A DNA stretch of 64,000 nt from Candidatus Poribacteria bacterium. GTDB lineage: Bacteria > Poribacteria > WGA-4E > PCPOR2b. Location: contig OZ242326.1 in NCBI GenBank assembly GCA_965208325.1, positions 3,520,001 through 3,584,000 on the forward strand. The letters run 5' to 3'. Each line of letters begins with the position of its first letter. The stretch's first letter is position 1. Shown here in pieces: positions 1,295 to 8,553 of this stretch. The position numbers were made by a program, and so were the translations under genes. The notes under the pieces were generated by a model. That model did not search any database, was not told the origin of the DNA, and was given only the letters and a program-made list of their open reading frames with translations.

Positions 1295-1324
1295 ATTATG
1301 GCACAATTGGCCGTATTGTGTCAA
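1295..1324 (-). promoter_or_regulatory. sigma70-type promoter for the VOC gene
   Basis: TTGACA-N18-CATAAT on the minus strand. Confidence 0.5.
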
Positions 1325-1428
1325 ACAGTATTCCCCACCCACTGGCATACGTAACAAACGCTTTAGTCTTCTTTCTCGCCTCGATTTCCCACTCAACAAA
1401 TTTCCCGCTGAATTTTTCGTAAAATCTG

Positions 1429-1457
1429 TGAACTTTTCATTTCCTTGCGGTGTCATT
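1429..1457 (+). promoter_or_regulatory. candidate ECF (sigmaE-like) promoter upstream of the sigma/mini-RNAP operon
   Basis: TGAACTT-N16-GTCATT resembles the sigmaE consensus GGAACTT-N16-GTCnnA. Confidence 0.5.
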
Positions 1458-1568
1458 TAGAATGGAAGCTTACCAGATGACCTATCGCCCCGCCTTTCGC
1501 CGGTAATTCTGAAAAGCAATATCAAAATGTCCTGAACCTAAGTCGGTACTTTCTTAAGCTGATGAGCA

Positions 1569-2174
1569 TTGATATTACAATCCGATGAACTTCTCATTGA
1601 TAAGATTCTTCAACGCGATGCGGAGGCGTTTGAAGTGCTTTGGGCACGATATAGCGCGTCCGTCCGCCAACACATCATACGCACCGTACAGGACGAAAGT
1701 GCGGCCGAGGATTTGGTTCAGGAAGCATTCTTGCGTCTATGGACATCCGCTGAACAGTGGGACGGACGCGGTAGTTTCAAGGGGTGGTTCTTCCGCATCG
1801 CTACAAATCTCGCTCTCAATTATCTGCGCGCGCTGCGGCGGCGGAAGCAACAGCCCCTCGAATTACCGCCGGATGATTTTGATGATGCGGACGAATCCGC
1901 GCCCGATCCGGATTGGATGATTGACACGTCAATACGTAGCCCCGACGCGATGTTAGTACAAGCCGAGCAGTCTAATTTGCTTTGGCGGCTTGTTGAAGAA
2001 CTCCCCGAAGATAAACGAGACGTGCTTCAGCTTGTATACCTGAAAGAGATGAATCTTCGCGACGTTGCCGCTGAGATTGGCGTCCCGGAAGGCACTGTAA
2101 AGTCGCGTTTACACTATTCGATTCGGCGCCTCGCTCAAGAATGGAAGGAGATTGCAGACGAAAACGAAGAATAG
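1569..2174 (+). CDS. ECF sigma-70 family factor
   Basis: Region 2 AEDLVQEAFLRLW...FKGWFFRIATNLALNYLR and region 4 LPEDKRDVLQL...VAAEIGVPEGTVKSRLH; TTG start. Confidence 0.95.
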   Translation: MILQSDELLIDKILQRDAEAFEVLWARYSASVRQHIIRTVQDESAAEDLVQEAFLRLWTSAEQWDGRGSFKGWFFRIATNLALNYLRALRRRKQQPLELPPDDFDDADESAPDPDWMIDTSIRSPDAMLVQAEQSNLLWRLVEELPEDKRDVLQLVYLKEMNLRDVAAEIGVPEGTVKSRLHYSIRRLAQEWKEIADENEE

Positions 2175-2221
2175 AGTAAGTGAGTAGGCGAGCGGAAGCG
2201 CAGCAAAGGCTATTTCTCGCC

Positions 2222-2263
2222 ACGCATTACGCATTACGCATTACGTATTACGCATTACGTATT
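2222..2263. repeat. tandem heptamer (ACGYATT)x6
   Basis: acgcatt acgcatt acgcatt acgtatt acgcatt acgtatt read directly. Confidence 0.9.
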
Positions 2264-2315
2264 CCACATCACGATTCACACTACACGAAATTCCCAATGG
2301 GAGGAGGAGACCGCA

Positions 2316-5300
2316 ATGTCACACAACGTCACCGCATTTTGGCACAAAGAATCTTTTGGCAAACTGATGGGCAATCGGTTGCCAGGGCTACTCGCCGAGC
2401 GATTACCGTTAGCTGGCTTCCATTTTGAATCTGTCAGTGCTTACACCGGTTGTATCAAAATCTCCCTCACGTCAACTGATGGCGACGTTGAAGTTGAATA
2501 CGCCGACATACCGCAGCCGGACGATGAAGGGATGTTCAAAATCGACGGAGAAAATTATGTAGTTGTTCCAACGGCTTCGACCCATAAACTTAAAAAGGCA
2601 AAAATAAGATGTGTTGGGGACCAACTATACAGTTATTTCAAAATGCGCTTGAAGGGTGCTTCCCTAGACCTGTCGTGGGAAGCAGCTTCTGTACGGTCAT
2701 GGCTCCCACTTGATGAATGGTCACAGCAATTTTTTCGCGACACATTTCACGCACAGAAACTACAGGAGACCAACTGGCTCGACAAGTATAGGCATCTTCG
2801 ACGGTTATACGTTCTGAACCGCGAGAAGGTGTTCACCCCCTCCCACTTCGGGCGGGCATGCCCTTTCGAGACGCCAGAGGGACCAAACATAGGTCGAATC
2901 CTTACGATTGCTAGGGGCGCCGAGATTCGCGGCGGAAAACTGGTCGTTGTTGATGAAAACCCAGAGGCAAACCTCGGCATAGCATCGGCAATGATCCCAT
3001 TTCTTGAACACAACGATCCTGCCCGGACAATGATGGGGGCTAACATGTTGTGTCAGTGGATGGCGCCTTCGTCTCCGGAGACAGCTCCACTACGCCAAGC
3101 CAAAGAGATTCCGAGGTTGGCTGCTGCTCCGGAGCCCGCACTTGTCCAAACGGGTTACGAACCGGATGTGCCTGACTTTTGGTGCGGTCGCAACCTATTG
3201 ACCGCTTTCATTTCATGGGGCGGCGATACCTTTGAAGACGGCATCGTGATAAGCCAGTCGTGCGCAGCGCGTCTGGATTTTCCTTACGCCGTTGAACCCG
3301 GCGATAAGATTGGCAACCGCCATGGAACGAAAGGGGTCGTTTCGCGCATCCTGCCTGACGATGAGATGCCGCACCTTGACGACGGTACACCGGTGGAACT
3401 TGTATTCAGTTTCGGTGGCTTACACGCGCTAATGAACGTCGGTCAATTACGAGAGGCGGTGATGGGGCGTATTGCACGATTGGAAAATAAGCCAGCAATC
3501 GTGACGCCATTCCACGCACCGAGTGCAGGCGAATTACGCGAACGCATCAAAAACGCAGGACTTCCCGAAGACGGCATGGAGATCCTCACACTTGGGCGAG
3601 ACGGTAAGAAGTTGGCAAGACCTAGCACAGTGGGTTGGGTTTACTGGGGACGTCTGGCTCACATTGCGTTAGATAAAATAAAAGCATCCGACTCAACCAA
3701 TATTGAAGACCATAGGTACTTCCAAACGCTCGGTGAACTTGAATACGATAGACTACGCAGCGCCTCAGTATTTGAAACATTGAGGGAACATTTTAACACA
3801 CGCGCCATGAATCGGACTGATGCGTATACGTTAGCGGAGCGCCTCGCAATAGGCGAAATTGAGCAGGCGGACCCACCGACGCCGATGTTCGCTAACCTCA
3901 CGAACCGGCTCTCGGCAGCAGGAATTCGGGTTGTATTCAGCGGCGGCAAGTTGACTTTTGGATTTGCGCCGCCGAATGGGAATACGCTCAAGCTTGCTCA
4001 GCCCGTCCCTCATCCGTGGTGCCGCGATCAATTCCTTGATGAGGTCGGTATCCGTGAAGACATCCCTGAATATCACGGACTTGCCGATGTTAACGCCAGG
4101 ACTGAACGGATGCTTGCGAGTCGTACACCGGCAAGTCTAACCCGCCAATCCCTCAAGCAGCTCCAAACGCGCGTGGCAGAATATGTCAATGCGCTCCTAA
4201 GTCCAACTGTCATGAACTTTAAGTCACGGAGCCTCTTCAGCGGACGCGCCGTCATTGCGCCGTCCGCAGAGTTGCGCGCTGATCAGGTCGGTATTCCGGT
4301 AGAGATGGCGTGGTCACTCTTTGGACATCATGTTACAAAGAGACTTGGTGGAGCAGAGGAAGTACGGCGGCGTAGTCAAGATGCAACACATGTCCTGGAT
4401 GAATTGATGGCGGGTTCGTGGGTAATTATGCTTCGTCCACCGGCACATACACTCACTAACCTTGTTGCGTTTCATCCGGTGCGGCACCCCGACCGCGTCA
4501 TCCGCGTGCACCCATTCGTGTGCGAGTTGATGAACGCCAATTTTGACGGCGATCAAGCAGCAGTCTTTCTCCCAATCACTGAAAGCGGACAACGCGAAGC
4601 CGGTGAACGGCTTTCCATCGCCGGGCATCTGAAATACGACCCAAGTTTATCCAAATTGCTGGCACCGACGCATGACGCGATGTGGGGATTGGCGCATTTA
4701 AGCCTCACCCCGGAAGGGCGCGGCGAAATCGCGGAGATTATCGGCACCGACATCCCCGCCCCACACGGTCTGGTTAGACAAGATTCGCTGGCAAAGTCAC
4801 TAGAAGCCATCCTCAAATGCGATGGAATAGACCGCACGATTGAAATAGCCGAACGTCTAATGCGGCGCGGGCTCGCAATTGCTAAGGAATCGGGTGCTTC
4901 CATGAGCGCATTCATCAGCAGCCCCGCCGGCAGTCCATCCGTCCCGGTAGATCCCGACGATGCACCCGCTTGGAACGCTTATGCTGAAGAGCTGGTCGAA
5001 TGGCTTGCCGCGTGTAACGACTTCGCAGACAACAACTTGGGACCGCACATCCTTGCGGCAAAAAGCCAACACGCACATAGTAGATTTCATCGAATCGCTT
5101 GTTGTGTCGGGGGGAGAGGTACGGTTTTGGACCTTCAAGGAAGAAATATCATCGTTCGCAACGGGTATAGCGACGGTTTAACACCCGAGGAACTTTACCC
5201 GCTTTCCGTCACTTCGCGGGAGGAGATTGTGCGGCTCAATTTGGAACGGCAACGGATAGAATTGGAATTGCGCAACGACAGTGAGCCGGCAGGATTCACC

Positions 5301-5435
5301 GTCCTAGTGCGTGCAATGCGTGCCAAACACCCAGGTTTCGTTTTCGCCCGAGCCGCTGCTACCGGCGAGACCGATCCGCTTACTGATGTGGACAGCCGTC
5401 TTTTCGTCGGGCTACCTGTATCAACGGAGGAGTGA
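2316..5435 (+). CDS. single-chain minimal RNA polymerase beta/beta' fusion-like protein (two-barrel fold) with variant catalytic motif NANFDGD
   Basis: beta motifs HFGRACPFETPEGPNIG, IPFLEHNDPARTMMGANM, FEDGIVIS, GDKIGNRHGTKGVVSRILP..EMPHLDDGTPVEL. Then beta' motifs LAQPVPHPW, FSGRAVI, GIPVEMAWSLF, HPFVCELMNANFDGDQAAVFLP and C-terminal AAATGETDPL....LFVG. GGAGGAGG SD before ATG 2316. Confidence 0.93.
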   Translation: MSHNVTAFWHKESFGKLMGNRLPGLLAERLPLAGFHFESVSAYTGCIKISLTSTDGDVEVEYADIPQPDDEGMFKIDGENYVVVPTASTHKLKKAKIRCVGDQLYSYFKMRLKGASLDLSWEAASVRSWLPLDEWSQQFFRDTFHAQKLQETNWLDKYRHLRRLYVLNREKVFTPSHFGRACPFETPEGPNIGRILTIARGAEIRGGKLVVVDENPEANLGIASAMIPFLEHNDPARTMMGANMLCQWMAPSSPETAPLRQAKEIPRLAAAPEPALVQTGYEPDVPDFWCGRNLLTAFISWGGDTFEDGIVISQSCAARLDFPYAVEPGDKIGNRHGTKGVVSRILPDDEMPHLDDGTPVELVFSFGGLHALMNVGQLREAVMGRIARLENKPAIVTPFHAPSAGELRERIKNAGLPEDGMEILTLGRDGKKLARPSTVGWVYWGRLAHIALDKIKASDSTNIEDHRYFQTLGELEYDRLRSASVFETLREHFNTRAMNRTDAYTLAERLAIGEIEQADPPTPMFANLTNRLSAAGIRVVFSGGKLTFGFAPPNGNTLKLAQPVPHPWCRDQFLDEVGIREDIPEYHGLADVNARTERMLASRTPASLTRQSLKQLQTRVAEYVNALLSPTVMNFKSRSLFSGRAVIAPSAELRADQVGIPVEMAWSLFGHHVTKRLGGAEEVRRRSQDATHVLDELMAGSWVIMLRPPAHTLTNLVAFHPVRHPDRVIRVHPFVCELMNANFDGDQAAVFLPITESGQREAGERLSIAGHLKYDPSLSKLLAPTHDAMWGLAHLSLTPEGRGEIAEIIGTDIPAPHGLVRQDSLAKSLEAILKCDGIDRTIEIAERLMRRGLAIAKESGASMSAFISSPAGSPSVPVDPDDAPAWNAYAEELVEWLAACNDFADNNLGPHILAAKSQHAHSRFHRIACCVGGRGTVLDLQGRNIIVRNGYSDGLTPEELYPLSVTSREEIVRLNLERQRIELELRNDSEPAGFTVLVRAMRAKHPGFVFARAAATGETDPLTDVDSRLFVGLPVSTEE

Positions 5436-5472
5436 TACATTGTCGTGAACACAAGCAATATCCGTGATTCAG

Positions 5473-6279
5473 TCATTCATCAAACACTTCACTGCCGATT
5501 GAGCCGCCGGCATTCATCGCCAAATTGCCGCCGTCCATCGGAATTATCGCACCGGTAATCCATGAAGACTCGTCCGATGCGAGAAATACCGCCAGGCCGC
5601 GAATGTCGTCAGGGCGGCCGAATCGTCCCATTGGAATGCCGCTGAGGAACCGATCCTTAATTCGCGGATCAGCGTCGATGCGTTTCTGCAAATCTGGGTT
5701 TAATACTTGTGCGGGTAAAATCGCATTGACCCGCACACCGCGTCCCGACCATTCGGTGCTCAGTTCCCGTGTCATCTGGACAACCGCACCCATCGCCATG
5801 CTGTATGCGATGTGCCCGCGGCCCATACCCGTGATGCTCGCCAGAGAACCGAGACTTACGATGCTCCCACTTCCAGCGGCAAGCATCCGCCGACCGGCTT
5901 CCTGACAACAACAGAATCTGCCATAGACAAGGTTGCGCCAAGTCTGTTCAACGTCTTCTAACGAGATAACCTCCGGTTTTGCTCGGATCGCTTCGCCCGC
6001 GACATTACCTAGAAAATCGATCCGACCAAATTCCTCGTCCACTCGTGCAAACATGGCGCGAATTTGATCCGGATGCGATACGTCACAATCAACAGCGATG
6101 GCGCGGCGTCCCATCTCCCTGATTTCGCCAGCAGTCTTCACCGCACCAGCCAAGTCAATATCCGCAAGCATCAAGCCCGCACCCGCCTCTGCCAAAGCTA
6201 ACGACATCGCACGACCCATGCCGCTTGCCGCTCCCGATACAACTGCAACTCGTCCGGCAAGATTGAACATCTCCGTCAT
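5473..6279 (-). CDS. SDR family NAD(P)-dependent oxidoreductase
   Basis: SGAASGMG Rossmann motif, GVRVNAILP, ITGAIIPMDGG; YxxxK appears as YSMAM. Confidence 0.9.
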   Translation of the reverse strand: MTEMFNLAGRVAVVSGAASGMGRAMSLALAEAGAGLMLADIDLAGAVKTAGEIREMGRRAIAVDCDVSHPDQIRAMFARVDEEFGRIDFLGNVAGEAIRAKPEVISLEDVEQTWRNLVYGRFCCCQEAGRRMLAAGSGSIVSLGSLASITGMGRGHIAYSMAMGAVVQMTRELSTEWSGRGVRVNAILPAQVLNPDLQKRIDADPRIKDRFLSGIPMGRFGRPDDIRGLAVFLASDESSWITGAIIPMDGGNLAMNAGGSIGSEVFDE

Positions 6280-7392: not shown

Positions 7393-8553
7393 TCAGATTA
7401 TGGCGCTGTGGGCACGTAGATACTGCGCCACCTCAACACGGTCTTCGTGTTCTGCCCATGCAAGCGGGGATAGGTGATGAGCACCGTCTTTATTATTTAG
7501 GTTTGCACCTCGCTCTGCGAGAAGCATGACTATCGCGAGATGGCCCTTGAACGCCGCAAAGTGGACCGGCATCCACACTGCACCTAAGCCGGGCGGCATC
7601 GCATCTACTCGCGCGCCTCGTTCAAGCAGCAACGCGGCAACCTCCGCACGACCGTTCAAACTGGCAATACACAATGCTTCTTCGAGAATCTCTTGCGGTT
7701 CGTCCGACCGAGACTCCTCTTCAAACCAGCCGATGTCGCCGAGGTTCGGCCGATCAGATGCCGCCTCCGGCTTCAGGGTTCCATCTTCAGCAAAGTAAGA
7801 CTTTACCGAGTCAATGCCGCCGGCGCCCGCCGCCATCCAAAAGCTACACGGCGATATACCACGTTCAATCCAAAAATCGACAGCATCCCGATTCCCGTGC
7901 AACATGGCCGATTTTATCTGCCAAACGGCGGGCGATTCGTCCGAGCGTAACGCGCCGGTTTCGATGAGGAGTTGGACAGCTTTTAGATTGTTTGCCCAAA
8001 ACACTTTTTCCATTCGAGCCCCTGCTCCGATAAGGGCGCGCATTATGGGAAGTCGAGTGTCGGTGGAGATGCCTTCGATCGAGGCGGCGTATTCAAGAAG
8101 TGTGATATAGTCCTCAGATATCTCGGGCGCCTTTATCATCGCGTTGACAATGGAGGGGGCATGTTTTAACAGTTCTCTCAGTGTGTTTGAATCGCCTTTC
8201 CGGATGGTTTCAAACGCTGCACTCAAGGTTTCGTCAGTGCGCTCCGAAGGGTCGGCTCCGAGCATGATTGCACGCTCGATGAGTGCCTCCCAACTCGTAA
8301 ATCCTCTTTCACGCGCAATCACGAGTTGCGCCTCTTTTAATGACAGGTCCGAGGCGCGGACTTGTTCATATTTTGCACCCGCAAATCGCGGCAGGTATTC
8401 CCGAAGGCGGTGAGCAGCCCAACGCAAACCGGATTGATGCGCCTTCAATAGAATTCGCGCTAGTCTCTGGTAGTAGGCGCCGCCTTTCCCCCATCCCCAC
8501 AACATATGGTCGCGCGGATCTCGCGTGGCGTGCTCGATCGAGTTCGCAGTCAT
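7393..8553 (-). CDS. ankyrin-repeat protein
   Basis: N-terminal EAQLVIARERGFTSW motif; ankyrin repeats ALCIASLNGRAEVAALLLERGA and PVHFAAFKGHLAIVMLLAERGA. Confidence 0.85.
   Translation of the reverse strand: MTANSIEHATRDPRDHMLWGWGKGGAYYQRLARILLKAHQSGLRWAAHRLREYLPRFAGAKYEQVRASDLSLKEAQLVIARERGFTSWEALIERAIMLGADPSERTDETLSAAFETIRKGDSNTLRELLKHAPSIVNAMIKAPEISEDYITLLEYAASIEGISTDTRLPIMRALIGAGARMEKVFWANNLKAVQLLIETGALRSDESPAVWQIKSAMLHGNRDAVDFWIERGISPCSFWMAAGAGGIDSVKSYFAEDGTLKPEAASDRPNLGDIGWFEEESRSDEPQEILEEALCIASLNGRAEVAALLLERGARVDAMPPGLGAVWMPVHFAAFKGHLAIVMLLAERGANLNNKDGAHHLSPLAWAEHEDRVEVAQYLRAHSAII

Follow-up and report, generated by a model that had tools for sequence, protein, structure and literature searches.

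In a 64,000-nt stretch of the genome of Candidatus Poribacteria bacterium, a sponge symbiont whose genome is a single 4.7-Mb contig, the gene for an extracytoplasmic function (ECF) σ factor is directly followed by the gene for a 1039-residue protein that is a pruned, in-order fusion of the bacterial RNA polymerase (RNAP) β and β′ subunits. The whole stretch is called the window, and positions refer to it unless a contig or locus is named. The two open reading frames (ORFs) lie on the + strand: a 201-aa (amino acid) ORF at 1569-2174 begins with TTG, and a 1039-aa ORF at 2316-5435 begins with ATG and has a strong Shine-Dalgarno sequence. The fusion, here the mini protein, and its σ belong to a family of σ-coupled miniature RNAPs that is real, conserved in several phyla and apparently undescribed. 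To judge from the sequences, the chances are about even that the pair is an autoregulated σ/mini-RNAP module which was ancestrally catalytic and in which the copy found here is probably a non-catalytic σ-binding partner. A preliminary description of the window had reported both genes and the Shine-Dalgarno sequence as we find them, and its start coordinate, 1429, is the first base of a conserved promoter. The features are as follows.

1429..1454, + strand: ECF-type promoter of the operon, with a −35-like TGAAC (T-rich), a fixed spacer and a −10-like CGGTGTC (motif conservation).
1569..2174, + strand: ECF (group IV) σ factor, 201 aa, with an acidic σ2-σ4 linker containing P-x-W-M-I-D (Pfam, TIGR02937, alignment).
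2222..2263, + strand: six tandem heptamers (ACGCATT/ACGTATT) in the spacer between the σ and mini genes (sequence).
2300..2309, + strand: Shine-Dalgarno sequence GGAGGAGGAG, 6 nt 5′ of the ATG (sequence).
2316..5435, + strand: single-chain mini RNAP, 1039 aa, β-like over about residues 1-530 and β′-like over about residues 540-1039 (domains, profile, model).
3300..3335, + strand: β double-psi barrel motif GDKIGNRHGTKG, intact (column mapping to E. coli β).
4068..4196, + strand: clamp helices, residues 585-627, a helical hairpin equivalent to about E. coli β′ 267-310 (profile, model).
4533..4553, + strand: β′ catalytic loop NANFDGD, residues 740-746, with N742 in place of E. coli D460 (alignment columns).

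What remains of an RNAP in a protein of this size? Pfam matches the 1039-aa ORF to three RNAP families only, and to no anti-σ domain: Rpb2 domain 3 comes first (residues 148-204, E 5.8e-9), then Rpb2 domain 6 (best stretch 326-458, E 7.3e-39) and, after these, Rpb1 domain 2 (best stretch 690-763, E 4.7e-16). All of the β and β′ motif strings quoted in the preliminary description are present in the translation, in native order, which confirms that observation. Pfam, the family profile and a structural model agree that the protein belongs to the two-barrel RNAP superfamily, its two double-psi barrels coming from the β-like and β′-like parts. It scores well below the cut-offs of models for full-size subunits: 161.7 bits in three stretches with the RpoB model TIGR02013 (cut-off 801.15), 73.3 bits with the RpoC model TIGR02386 (963.5) and 152.9 bits with NF011417, the full-length β/β′ fusion of about 2840 positions (4632). 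The genome also has separate canonical rpoB and rpoC genes; they lie at C1:3943866-3951993, some 420 kb from the mini gene (C1:3522316), and score 1783 bits (rpoB, TIGR02013) and 1663.9 bits (rpoC, TIGR02386), both above the cut-offs.

A profile of 81 family members, aligned to E. coli β (1342 aa) and β′ (1407 aa), separates what has been kept from what has been lost. The matched β segments are 119-147, 474-580 (the Rif-pocket and fork region), 651-707, 791-821 (which holds E813/D814), 1054-1148 (the barrel with K1065/K1073) and 1177-1341; the matched β′ segments are 267-516 (the clamp helices, then the NADFDGD barrel), 591-640 and 706-794 (the F-loop and the N-terminal half of the bridge helix), and β′ 1317-1354 falls below significance (−2.2 bits, i-Evalue 0.076). 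Unmatched are β 148-473, which we take to be the β lobe with lineage insertions; β 822-1053, presumably the whole flap with the flap-tip; a gap of about 25 residues around β′ 311-335, which we take to be the rudder stretch; and the zinc cysteines. Also missing from the family is the whole stretch from the bridge helix to region H, presumably the trigger loop and jaw. The clamp helices, the main docking site for σ region 2, are thus among the retained parts, and the flap-tip helix, to which σ region 4 normally docks, is among the lost ones. An AlphaFold2 model of the mini protein, made with an 81-row alignment, has a mean pLDDT of 94.1 and a pTM of 0.91, and its helices 585-601 and 606-627 form a hairpin where the clamp helices align. 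Foldseek ranks bacterial and plastid β chains at the top of its PDB matches to this model (E 1.3e-22, TM on query about 0.41), with β′ chains lower; a sequence search of the PDB with the mini protein matches only canonical RNAP subunits; and the BFVD set of viral predicted structures yields weaker matches, to giant-virus RNAP subunits (best E 8.1e-17). Profile, model and Foldseek all point to RNAP subunits, which bears out the earlier view of a stripped-down, cellular-type (bacterial) β-β′ paralogue.

The partner of this protein is an ordinary ECF σ factor. The upstream ORF matches Pfam Sigma70_r2, r4 and ECF, with r1.1 and r3 unmatched, and its 119.7 bits with TIGR02937, the σ70-ECF model (cut-off 42.9), place it among the ECF (group IV) factors; the P-x-W-M-I-D linker is conserved in an alignment of 24 orthologues. 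The linkage of the two genes, supposed earlier from a single locus, holds across the family. We examined 32 genome loci, 30 from the phylum and two from Chloroflexota, and in 31 of them the mini gene comes immediately after a σ orthologue on its own strand; the remaining locus has a 5′-truncated mini pseudogene with an internal stop. Identity of the σ and mini genes to those of the window declines in step (88/89, 82/83, 66/68, 52/50 and 43/43%). A gap of 6-17 bp separates the genes in many lineages, and there the Shine-Dalgarno sequence falls within the last σ codons. A metagenome scan with a family-specific C-terminal alignment found 59 loci, 31 of which include the mini N-terminus. Grouped at 90% identity or more, these 31 form 17 clusters: σ is linked throughout in 15, one is mixed and one, L129/L130, is without σ, its mini gene being preceded by a gene for an IS200-type transposase. 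Six loci of the mixed cluster have the σ gene and eight do not; in the eight, it appears to have been deleted.

Loss tells the same story. A σ search of the phylum's 176 genomes at E≤1e-35 gave 32 matches. Both genes are found in 31 genomes, neither in 142; one genome, G056, has only a σ gene with two in-frame stops and no mini gene, and two, G031 and G010, have only mini remnants. In the phylum, intact σ and mini genes occur only together and are lost or decay together. In G049 (C2:821095-824204, locus L106), the mini gene is split into ORFs of 610 and 495 aa, with σ and promoter intact; either a sequencing error or a recent frameshift might account for the split. Transposase genes stand beside σ-less mini copies at L129:3995-4423 (IS200-type) and L150:8331-9581 (ISL3-type). 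A 1214-aa metagenome protein, P0271, looks like a σ-mini fusion but was not counted as a Rosetta-stone fusion: it is likely a frameshift read-through, because σ region 4 is lost where the σ runs into the mini frame. Among 36 neighbour proteins of the metagenome loci, none is conserved beyond σ and mini; HD_3 and HTH_17+T2SSE proteins come up repeatedly only within a single set of related loci. The listed ORFs of at least 100 aa in the flanks of about 1.5 kb around the genome loci include no other anti-σ-like ORF. At L168:3420-4343, on the − strand, the divergent neighbour of a σ-mini pair is a tetratricopeptide repeat protein with two RNAP α C-terminal domains.

The pair has a promoter of its own. 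GAAC-N15-[GT]GTGTC precedes the σ gene in 30 of 30 genome loci, with the consensus tGAACtTTt-N-tGCGGTGTCat; the window copy lies about 115 nt 5′ of the TTG, and in the sister genus the motif is about 20 nt 5′ of the start. Conserved −35 GAAC-type and −10 GTC-type elements at fixed spacing in front of its own gene are the hallmark of an autoregulated ECF σ, and we infer that the promoter is recognised by the operon's own σ. Exact TGAAC-N14-CGGTGTC occurs once in the 4.7-Mb genome, at the window site, against none in the reversed-genome control, and with a weight matrix from 16 sites the window promoter scores 42.2 and the next site in the genome 21.5. A two-block matrix applied to the 59 metagenome loci, on which it was not trained, finds 22 sites at a score of at least 15, against one in the control, and each of the 22 has the orientation of the genes and lies immediately 5′ of σ or, in L129/L130, of the mini gene. 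At L108, where a 793-bp insertion parts the two genes, the motif recurs in front of the mini gene. Five metagenome loci (L170, L175, L176, L133 and L147) carry the promoter, alone or together with an N-terminal stretch of σ, and then only the last 35-140 or so mini residues; these look like internal deletion remnants.

Does this σ control anything else? A regulon search of the window genome finds nothing past the operon's own promoter: relaxed patterns occur at chance level (5/7, 12/12 and 62/79 against the control), and the next-best matrix sites fall inside ORFs and are without the core bases. In three sister-genus genomes, the search finds only the T-rich copy of the operon itself and a small number of sites without the T-rich tract after TGAAC, which are taken as chance. 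Of the six genomes of genus g9 that were checked, four carry another copy of the promoter in front of two ABC-2 family permease genes, which encode 510 and 479 aa (loci L191-L194: G023:C1:550146, G025:C1:1777631, G027:C1:2128738 and G024:C1:5486998), and these permease genes are candidate regulon members.

It is in the active site that the window protein departs from its family. The first catalytic Asp bridges both metals in solved RNAPs; the remaining residues considered here, nucleotide-site arginines among them, are presumed to bind metal and nucleoside triphosphates (NTPs). Mapped through the profile onto E. coli numbering, β′ D460 is kept in 77 of 81 representatives, D462 in 79, D464 in 78, R425 in 71, P427 in 72 and R731 in 69; on the β side, D814 and K1065 are kept in 73 each, K1073 in 77, R678 in 78, R687 and R1106 in 79 each and H1237 in 74. 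Asn in the D460 column is confined to the window protein and one congener. The window protein departs at four of these mapped positions, N742 (D460), C246 (R687), L372 (R1106) and H921 (R731), and its C246 and L372 are the sole Cys and the sole Leu in their columns. Its motif GDKIGNRHGTKG is intact, with K331, R335, H336 and K339 equivalent to E. coli β K1065, R1069, H1070 and K1073; so are the other catalytic residues D744, D746, E307, D308, R237, R707 and P709. The preliminary description had treated the active-site motif as intact, but the NANFDGDQ that it quoted departs from the invariant NADFDGD. A passage of PMC2919709 lists eight invariant residues of two-barrel RNAPs, which by our mapping are β′ D460, D462, D464, R425 and P427 and β D814, K1065 and K1073; each is kept in 71-79 of the 81 representatives, and the window protein has seven of the eight, the first Asp being N742. 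In T. thermophilus the first Asp, β′ D739, bridges both metals (PMC2919709).

All four genomes of the window's genus carry N742, and 19 other aligned loci keep D. Residues R237, R246 and R372 vary within the genus (Q/R, C/R and L/R) and are lost in differing combinations, a pattern of relaxed constraint on the nucleotide site; 18 of the 19 loci outside the genus keep all three, the exception being the divergent L119. The gene as a whole is nonetheless under purifying selection in this genus and is not drifting. Pairwise ratios of nonsynonymous to synonymous substitution rates (dN/dS) for the mini gene are 0.18-0.27 at dS 0.21-0.48, and 0.14-0.19 in the sister genus; for the σ gene they are 0.21 and 0.13, respectively. 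Region by region, no part of the mini gene is specially protected or abandoned, and each of the four genomes keeps the 1039-aa open frame, the σ gene, the promoter and the Shine-Dalgarno sequence. The catalytic centre of the family consensus is complete, and the window copy is probably a catalytically impaired derivative.

How would such a module work? The promoter has the geometry of ordinary ECF promoters, in its GAAC-type −35, its GTC-type −10 and their spacing, and for this reason we infer that host core carrying the operon's σ fires it, a single promoter serving both genes. The mini protein would then bind the same σ through its clamp helices; because the flap is gone, σ region 4 would be unable to dock on it as usual. 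In lineages with the Asp, whose catalytic centre is complete, the σ-mini pair would probably be a small second polymerase, that is, a transcription enzyme additional to the host's. In the window's genus, Asn742 and the loss of nucleotide-site arginines, yet under purifying selection, make a non-catalytic role the most likely: the mini protein would act without catalysis as a σ-binding, and possibly DNA-binding, partner in the anti-σ position and would feed back on its own promoter.

Several observations weigh against parts of this scheme. Mini residues 241-1039 were folded together with the σ, both as alignments, alongside three controls; the predicted complex scores 0.36 ("weak support"), the best control 0.00, with contacts agreeing by at least 44% between runs and a partner pLDDT of at least 68. 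In calibration, 116 of 157 solved complexes and two of 215 mismatches reached the mark, but at scores of 0.60 or less only 18 of the 157, together with both mismatches, did; the score is therefore a weak hint, and no interface is given. As σ-β′ complexes have already been solved, it may also reflect likeness to these. The flap-tip is deleted, so canonical holoenzyme geometry is not expected on the mini protein. The clamp-helix residues R275, E295 and A302, which we take to be the σ contacts in E. coli, have equivalents that are not conserved across the mini family, and the clamp helices are not better kept than the rest, with a dN/dS of 0.27 in the genus and 0.12 in the sister genus. Asn remains able to ligate Mg, and the window copy may therefore retain residual catalysis. 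The second promoter copy in g9 indicates that the σ can act as an ordinary ECF factor with a small regulon, and in the window genome, where the sole promoter is that of the operon itself, no output gene is visible for either a mini holoenzyme or a decoy.

Two of the alternatives had been named in the preliminary description, as a dedicated mini-polymerase and as an RNAP mimic replacing the anti-σ factor, and each may fit one part of the family better than the other. If the window genome, too, had a fully active σ-dependent mini RNAP, the Asn and the arginine losses would be tolerated, and the holoenzyme would transcribe specific templates, possibly from promoters with an architecture unlike that used by host RNAP. 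The complete catalytic centre of the family consensus, the purifying selection on the whole window protein and its remaining catalytic residues (D744, D746, E307, D308, K331, R335, H336, K339, R237, R707 and P709) speak for this, but the first Asp, metal-bridging according to PMC2919709, is D in 77 of 81 representatives, and varying R237, R246 and R372 argue for a relaxed nucleotide site; we regard full activity here as unlikely, and the mini-polymerase idea, favoured for the family, as overstated for this genome. That the whole family is a non-transcribing decoy, a novel anti-σ that sequesters the ECF σ from the host core via the clamp helices, seems distinctly improbable. The mini gene does sit where an anti-σ gene usually does, with no anti-σ-like ORF in the listed flanks to take that place; the family has kept the clamp helices, σ and mini disappear together, and the complex prediction (0.36 against 0.00) leans weakly the same way. 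A decoy, however, needs neither a two-metal centre nor NTP-binding lysines and arginines nor a bridge helix, all kept in roughly 90% or more of the 81 representatives, and in the window genome the σ would have its own inhibitor as its sole target, with no output. The family consensus thus favours a polymerase, and it is the window copy, with N742 and the lost arginines, that shifts towards the mimic.

A module that is probably non-catalytic might also be a module without function. We give little credence to a decaying relic in the window's genus, despite the loss of catalytic residues that vary between congeners, a dN/dS somewhat above that of the sister genus for both genes, and true decay elsewhere (the split gene of G049, the remnants of G031 and G010, the σ pseudogene of G056): the frame, σ, promoter and Shine-Dalgarno sequence are whole in four of four genomes of the genus, and dN/dS of 0.18-0.27 is far from neutrality. 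Nor do we see more than the slightest chance that the mini gene is an assembly chimera or a phage or plasmid polymerase captured in the chromosome. Nothing was found that speaks for either. The patchy spread of the gene (33 of 176 phylum genomes and at least two of 401 from Chloroflexota) suggests some horizontal transfer; against capture, viral contigs and phage and plasmid records searched hold no relative, and sequence similarity to the phage enzyme YonO is absent. A chimera was looked for in the contigs of four sponge-metagenome runs from four different studies, aligned to window positions 1300-5500, and was not found. One independent 24-kb contig covers all of 1300-5500, and two further contigs cover 2222/2234-5500, β/β′ junction included; each of these three bridging contigs differs from the window by at most 79 letters. 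Assemblies break only at the short repeat at 2222-2263, where in other metagenomes depth piles up and contigs end.

How widespread is the family? A word-indexed protein search gave 2245 matches among 8000 scored candidates, and the best 120 of these are all 990-1106 aa long and all have PF00562 and PF00623; homologues with the deletion pattern of the window protein are thus many. Named entries among the best 120 are called "hypothetical protein", save P0094, whose JGI label strings together the Pfam names Rpb2 domain 6, Rpb1 domain 2 and Rpb2 domain 3; the organisms named are Poribacteria, Hydrogenedentes, Chloroflexi and Ktedonobacteraceae, to which a later look-up added Latescibacterota. An exhaustive search of 50%-identity representatives gave 412 proteins at E≤1e-30, with about 80 full-length members at 32-57% identity. 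Fused or split forms were looked for among proteins of 571-1819 aa. Within the window's phylum, the 33 genomes with a mini gene are spread unevenly over its families (f1, 22 of 28; f2, 9 of 11; f8, 1 of 8; f4, 0 of 112), and in the Chloroflexota sample, two candidates were scored per genome. Five genomes of other phyla, reached through canonical rpoB/rpoC loci, have no mini gene. A contig scan with the full-length alignment returned 80 loci (L007-L086) that are canonical rpoB/rpoC and useless for mini-gene context; it was swamped because one of its patterns is the universal NADFDGDQ. No relative was found among 2.9 million viral contigs searched with C-terminal patterns, and among 33 phage and 67 plasmid records none covers at least 80% of the query; the top listed phage and plasmid matches, where annotated, fall on canonical rpoB/rpoC. 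Literature searches found no description of an ECF-linked β-β′ protein of about 1000 aa, and an ECF classification mentions neither RNAP β or β′ subunit genes nor Poribacteria in its main text and part of its supplement (PMC7826278).

Around the operon, as the preliminary description noted, ribosomal, phage and transposon genes are missing: none is among the ORFs scanned in the nearest 12 kb, which encode a haem-oxygenase-like protein, a glyoxalase fragment, an SDR, a cupin, an ankyrin protein, an MFS transporter and an AAA ATPase. A 386-aa ankyrin-repeat protein is encoded at 7393-8553 on the − strand. Rfam has no match at E≤1 over 1200-2400. Arrays of 3-17 heptamer units occur 30 times in the genome, against 0 for five permuted units, so the repeat at 2222-2263 is dispersed over the genome and probably not specific to the σ-mini system. 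In other lineages this spacer contains short tandem repeats of other kinds or palindromic insertions.

What would such a family mean? By the textbook view, bacteria have a single RNAP core. With somewhat less confidence than in the module itself, we propose that Poribacteria, Chloroflexota and, by source names, Hydrogenedentota and Latescibacterota may have a second, self-contained machine, a core of about 1000 aa with an ECF σ and a private promoter, and that in at least one genus this machine may have become a catalytically dead mimic kept by selection. If true, a conserved chromosomal core of one-third size with its own σ would be an exception to the single-core view; as a natural minimal σ-dependent RNAP, it would show which parts of the roughly 400-kDa enzyme promoter-directed initiation needs, and it would offer synthetic biology a compact orthogonal transcription unit. 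The catalytically degraded copies of the window's genus provide a built-in comparison for the role of an RNAP fold once polymerisation is lost and would, if true, be a natural case of a polymerase turned σ-directed regulator. With its promoter motif and two genes that are strictly lost together, the system lends itself to direct tests.

Among known systems, canonical RpoB/RpoC and the full-length β::β′ fusions (NF011417, NF007172) share the fold, block order and bacterial-type motifs of the mini protein, and the fusions share its β-then-β′ order as well. The mini protein differs in its length of about 1040 aa, compared with roughly 2750 for E. coli β plus β′ (1342 + 1407), and in having no lobe, flap, rudder, zinc site, trigger loop or jaw; its gene is paired with a σ gene rather than with ribosomal protein genes and is additional to the housekeeping rpoB/rpoC. 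Class I anti-σ factors are encoded downstream of ECF σ genes. The mini gene resembles them in its place directly after an autoregulated ECF σ gene, and sequestration of σ region 2 is possible in both cases, but the mini protein is about ten times larger and its fold is that of the normal target of σ.

YonO reportedly lacks a trigger loop, and we know of no σ partner for it. The mini protein is, like YonO, a single polypeptide without a trigger loop, but YonO is phage-borne, and the preliminary description was right to set the two apart: BLASTP gives a best E of 3.5 and hhalign a probability of 0.2% over 26 columns at the DxDGD loop. YonO, from the Bacillus prophage SPβ, is described as a single-chain two-barrel RNAP of about 100 kDa related to multisubunit RNAP (PMC5467207). 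Beggiatoaceae encode β′-like ORFs without most catalytic residues, proposed in PMC4679880 to be negative regulators. By description only, these share with the window copy the idea of a non-catalytic RNAP paralogue as regulator, and the heptamer direct repeats upstream of them recall those at 2222-2263; they are, however, β′-only, lie beside sensor kinases and have no σ, unlike the σ-linked β-β′ fusion (PMC4679880). The closest architectural analogue for which we found documentation is Orf6 of the yeast cytoplasmic killer plasmid pGKl2, a 982-aa Rpb2::Rpb1-like fusion from which about half of the coding sequence has been deleted (PMC2919709). On that description, Orf6 is eukaryote-derived, plasmid-borne and without σ, whereas the mini protein is bacterial-type, chromosomal and accompanied by an ECF σ; both are single chains of about 1000 aa, with the second-largest subunit ahead of the largest, pruned to a cellular-type two-barrel core.

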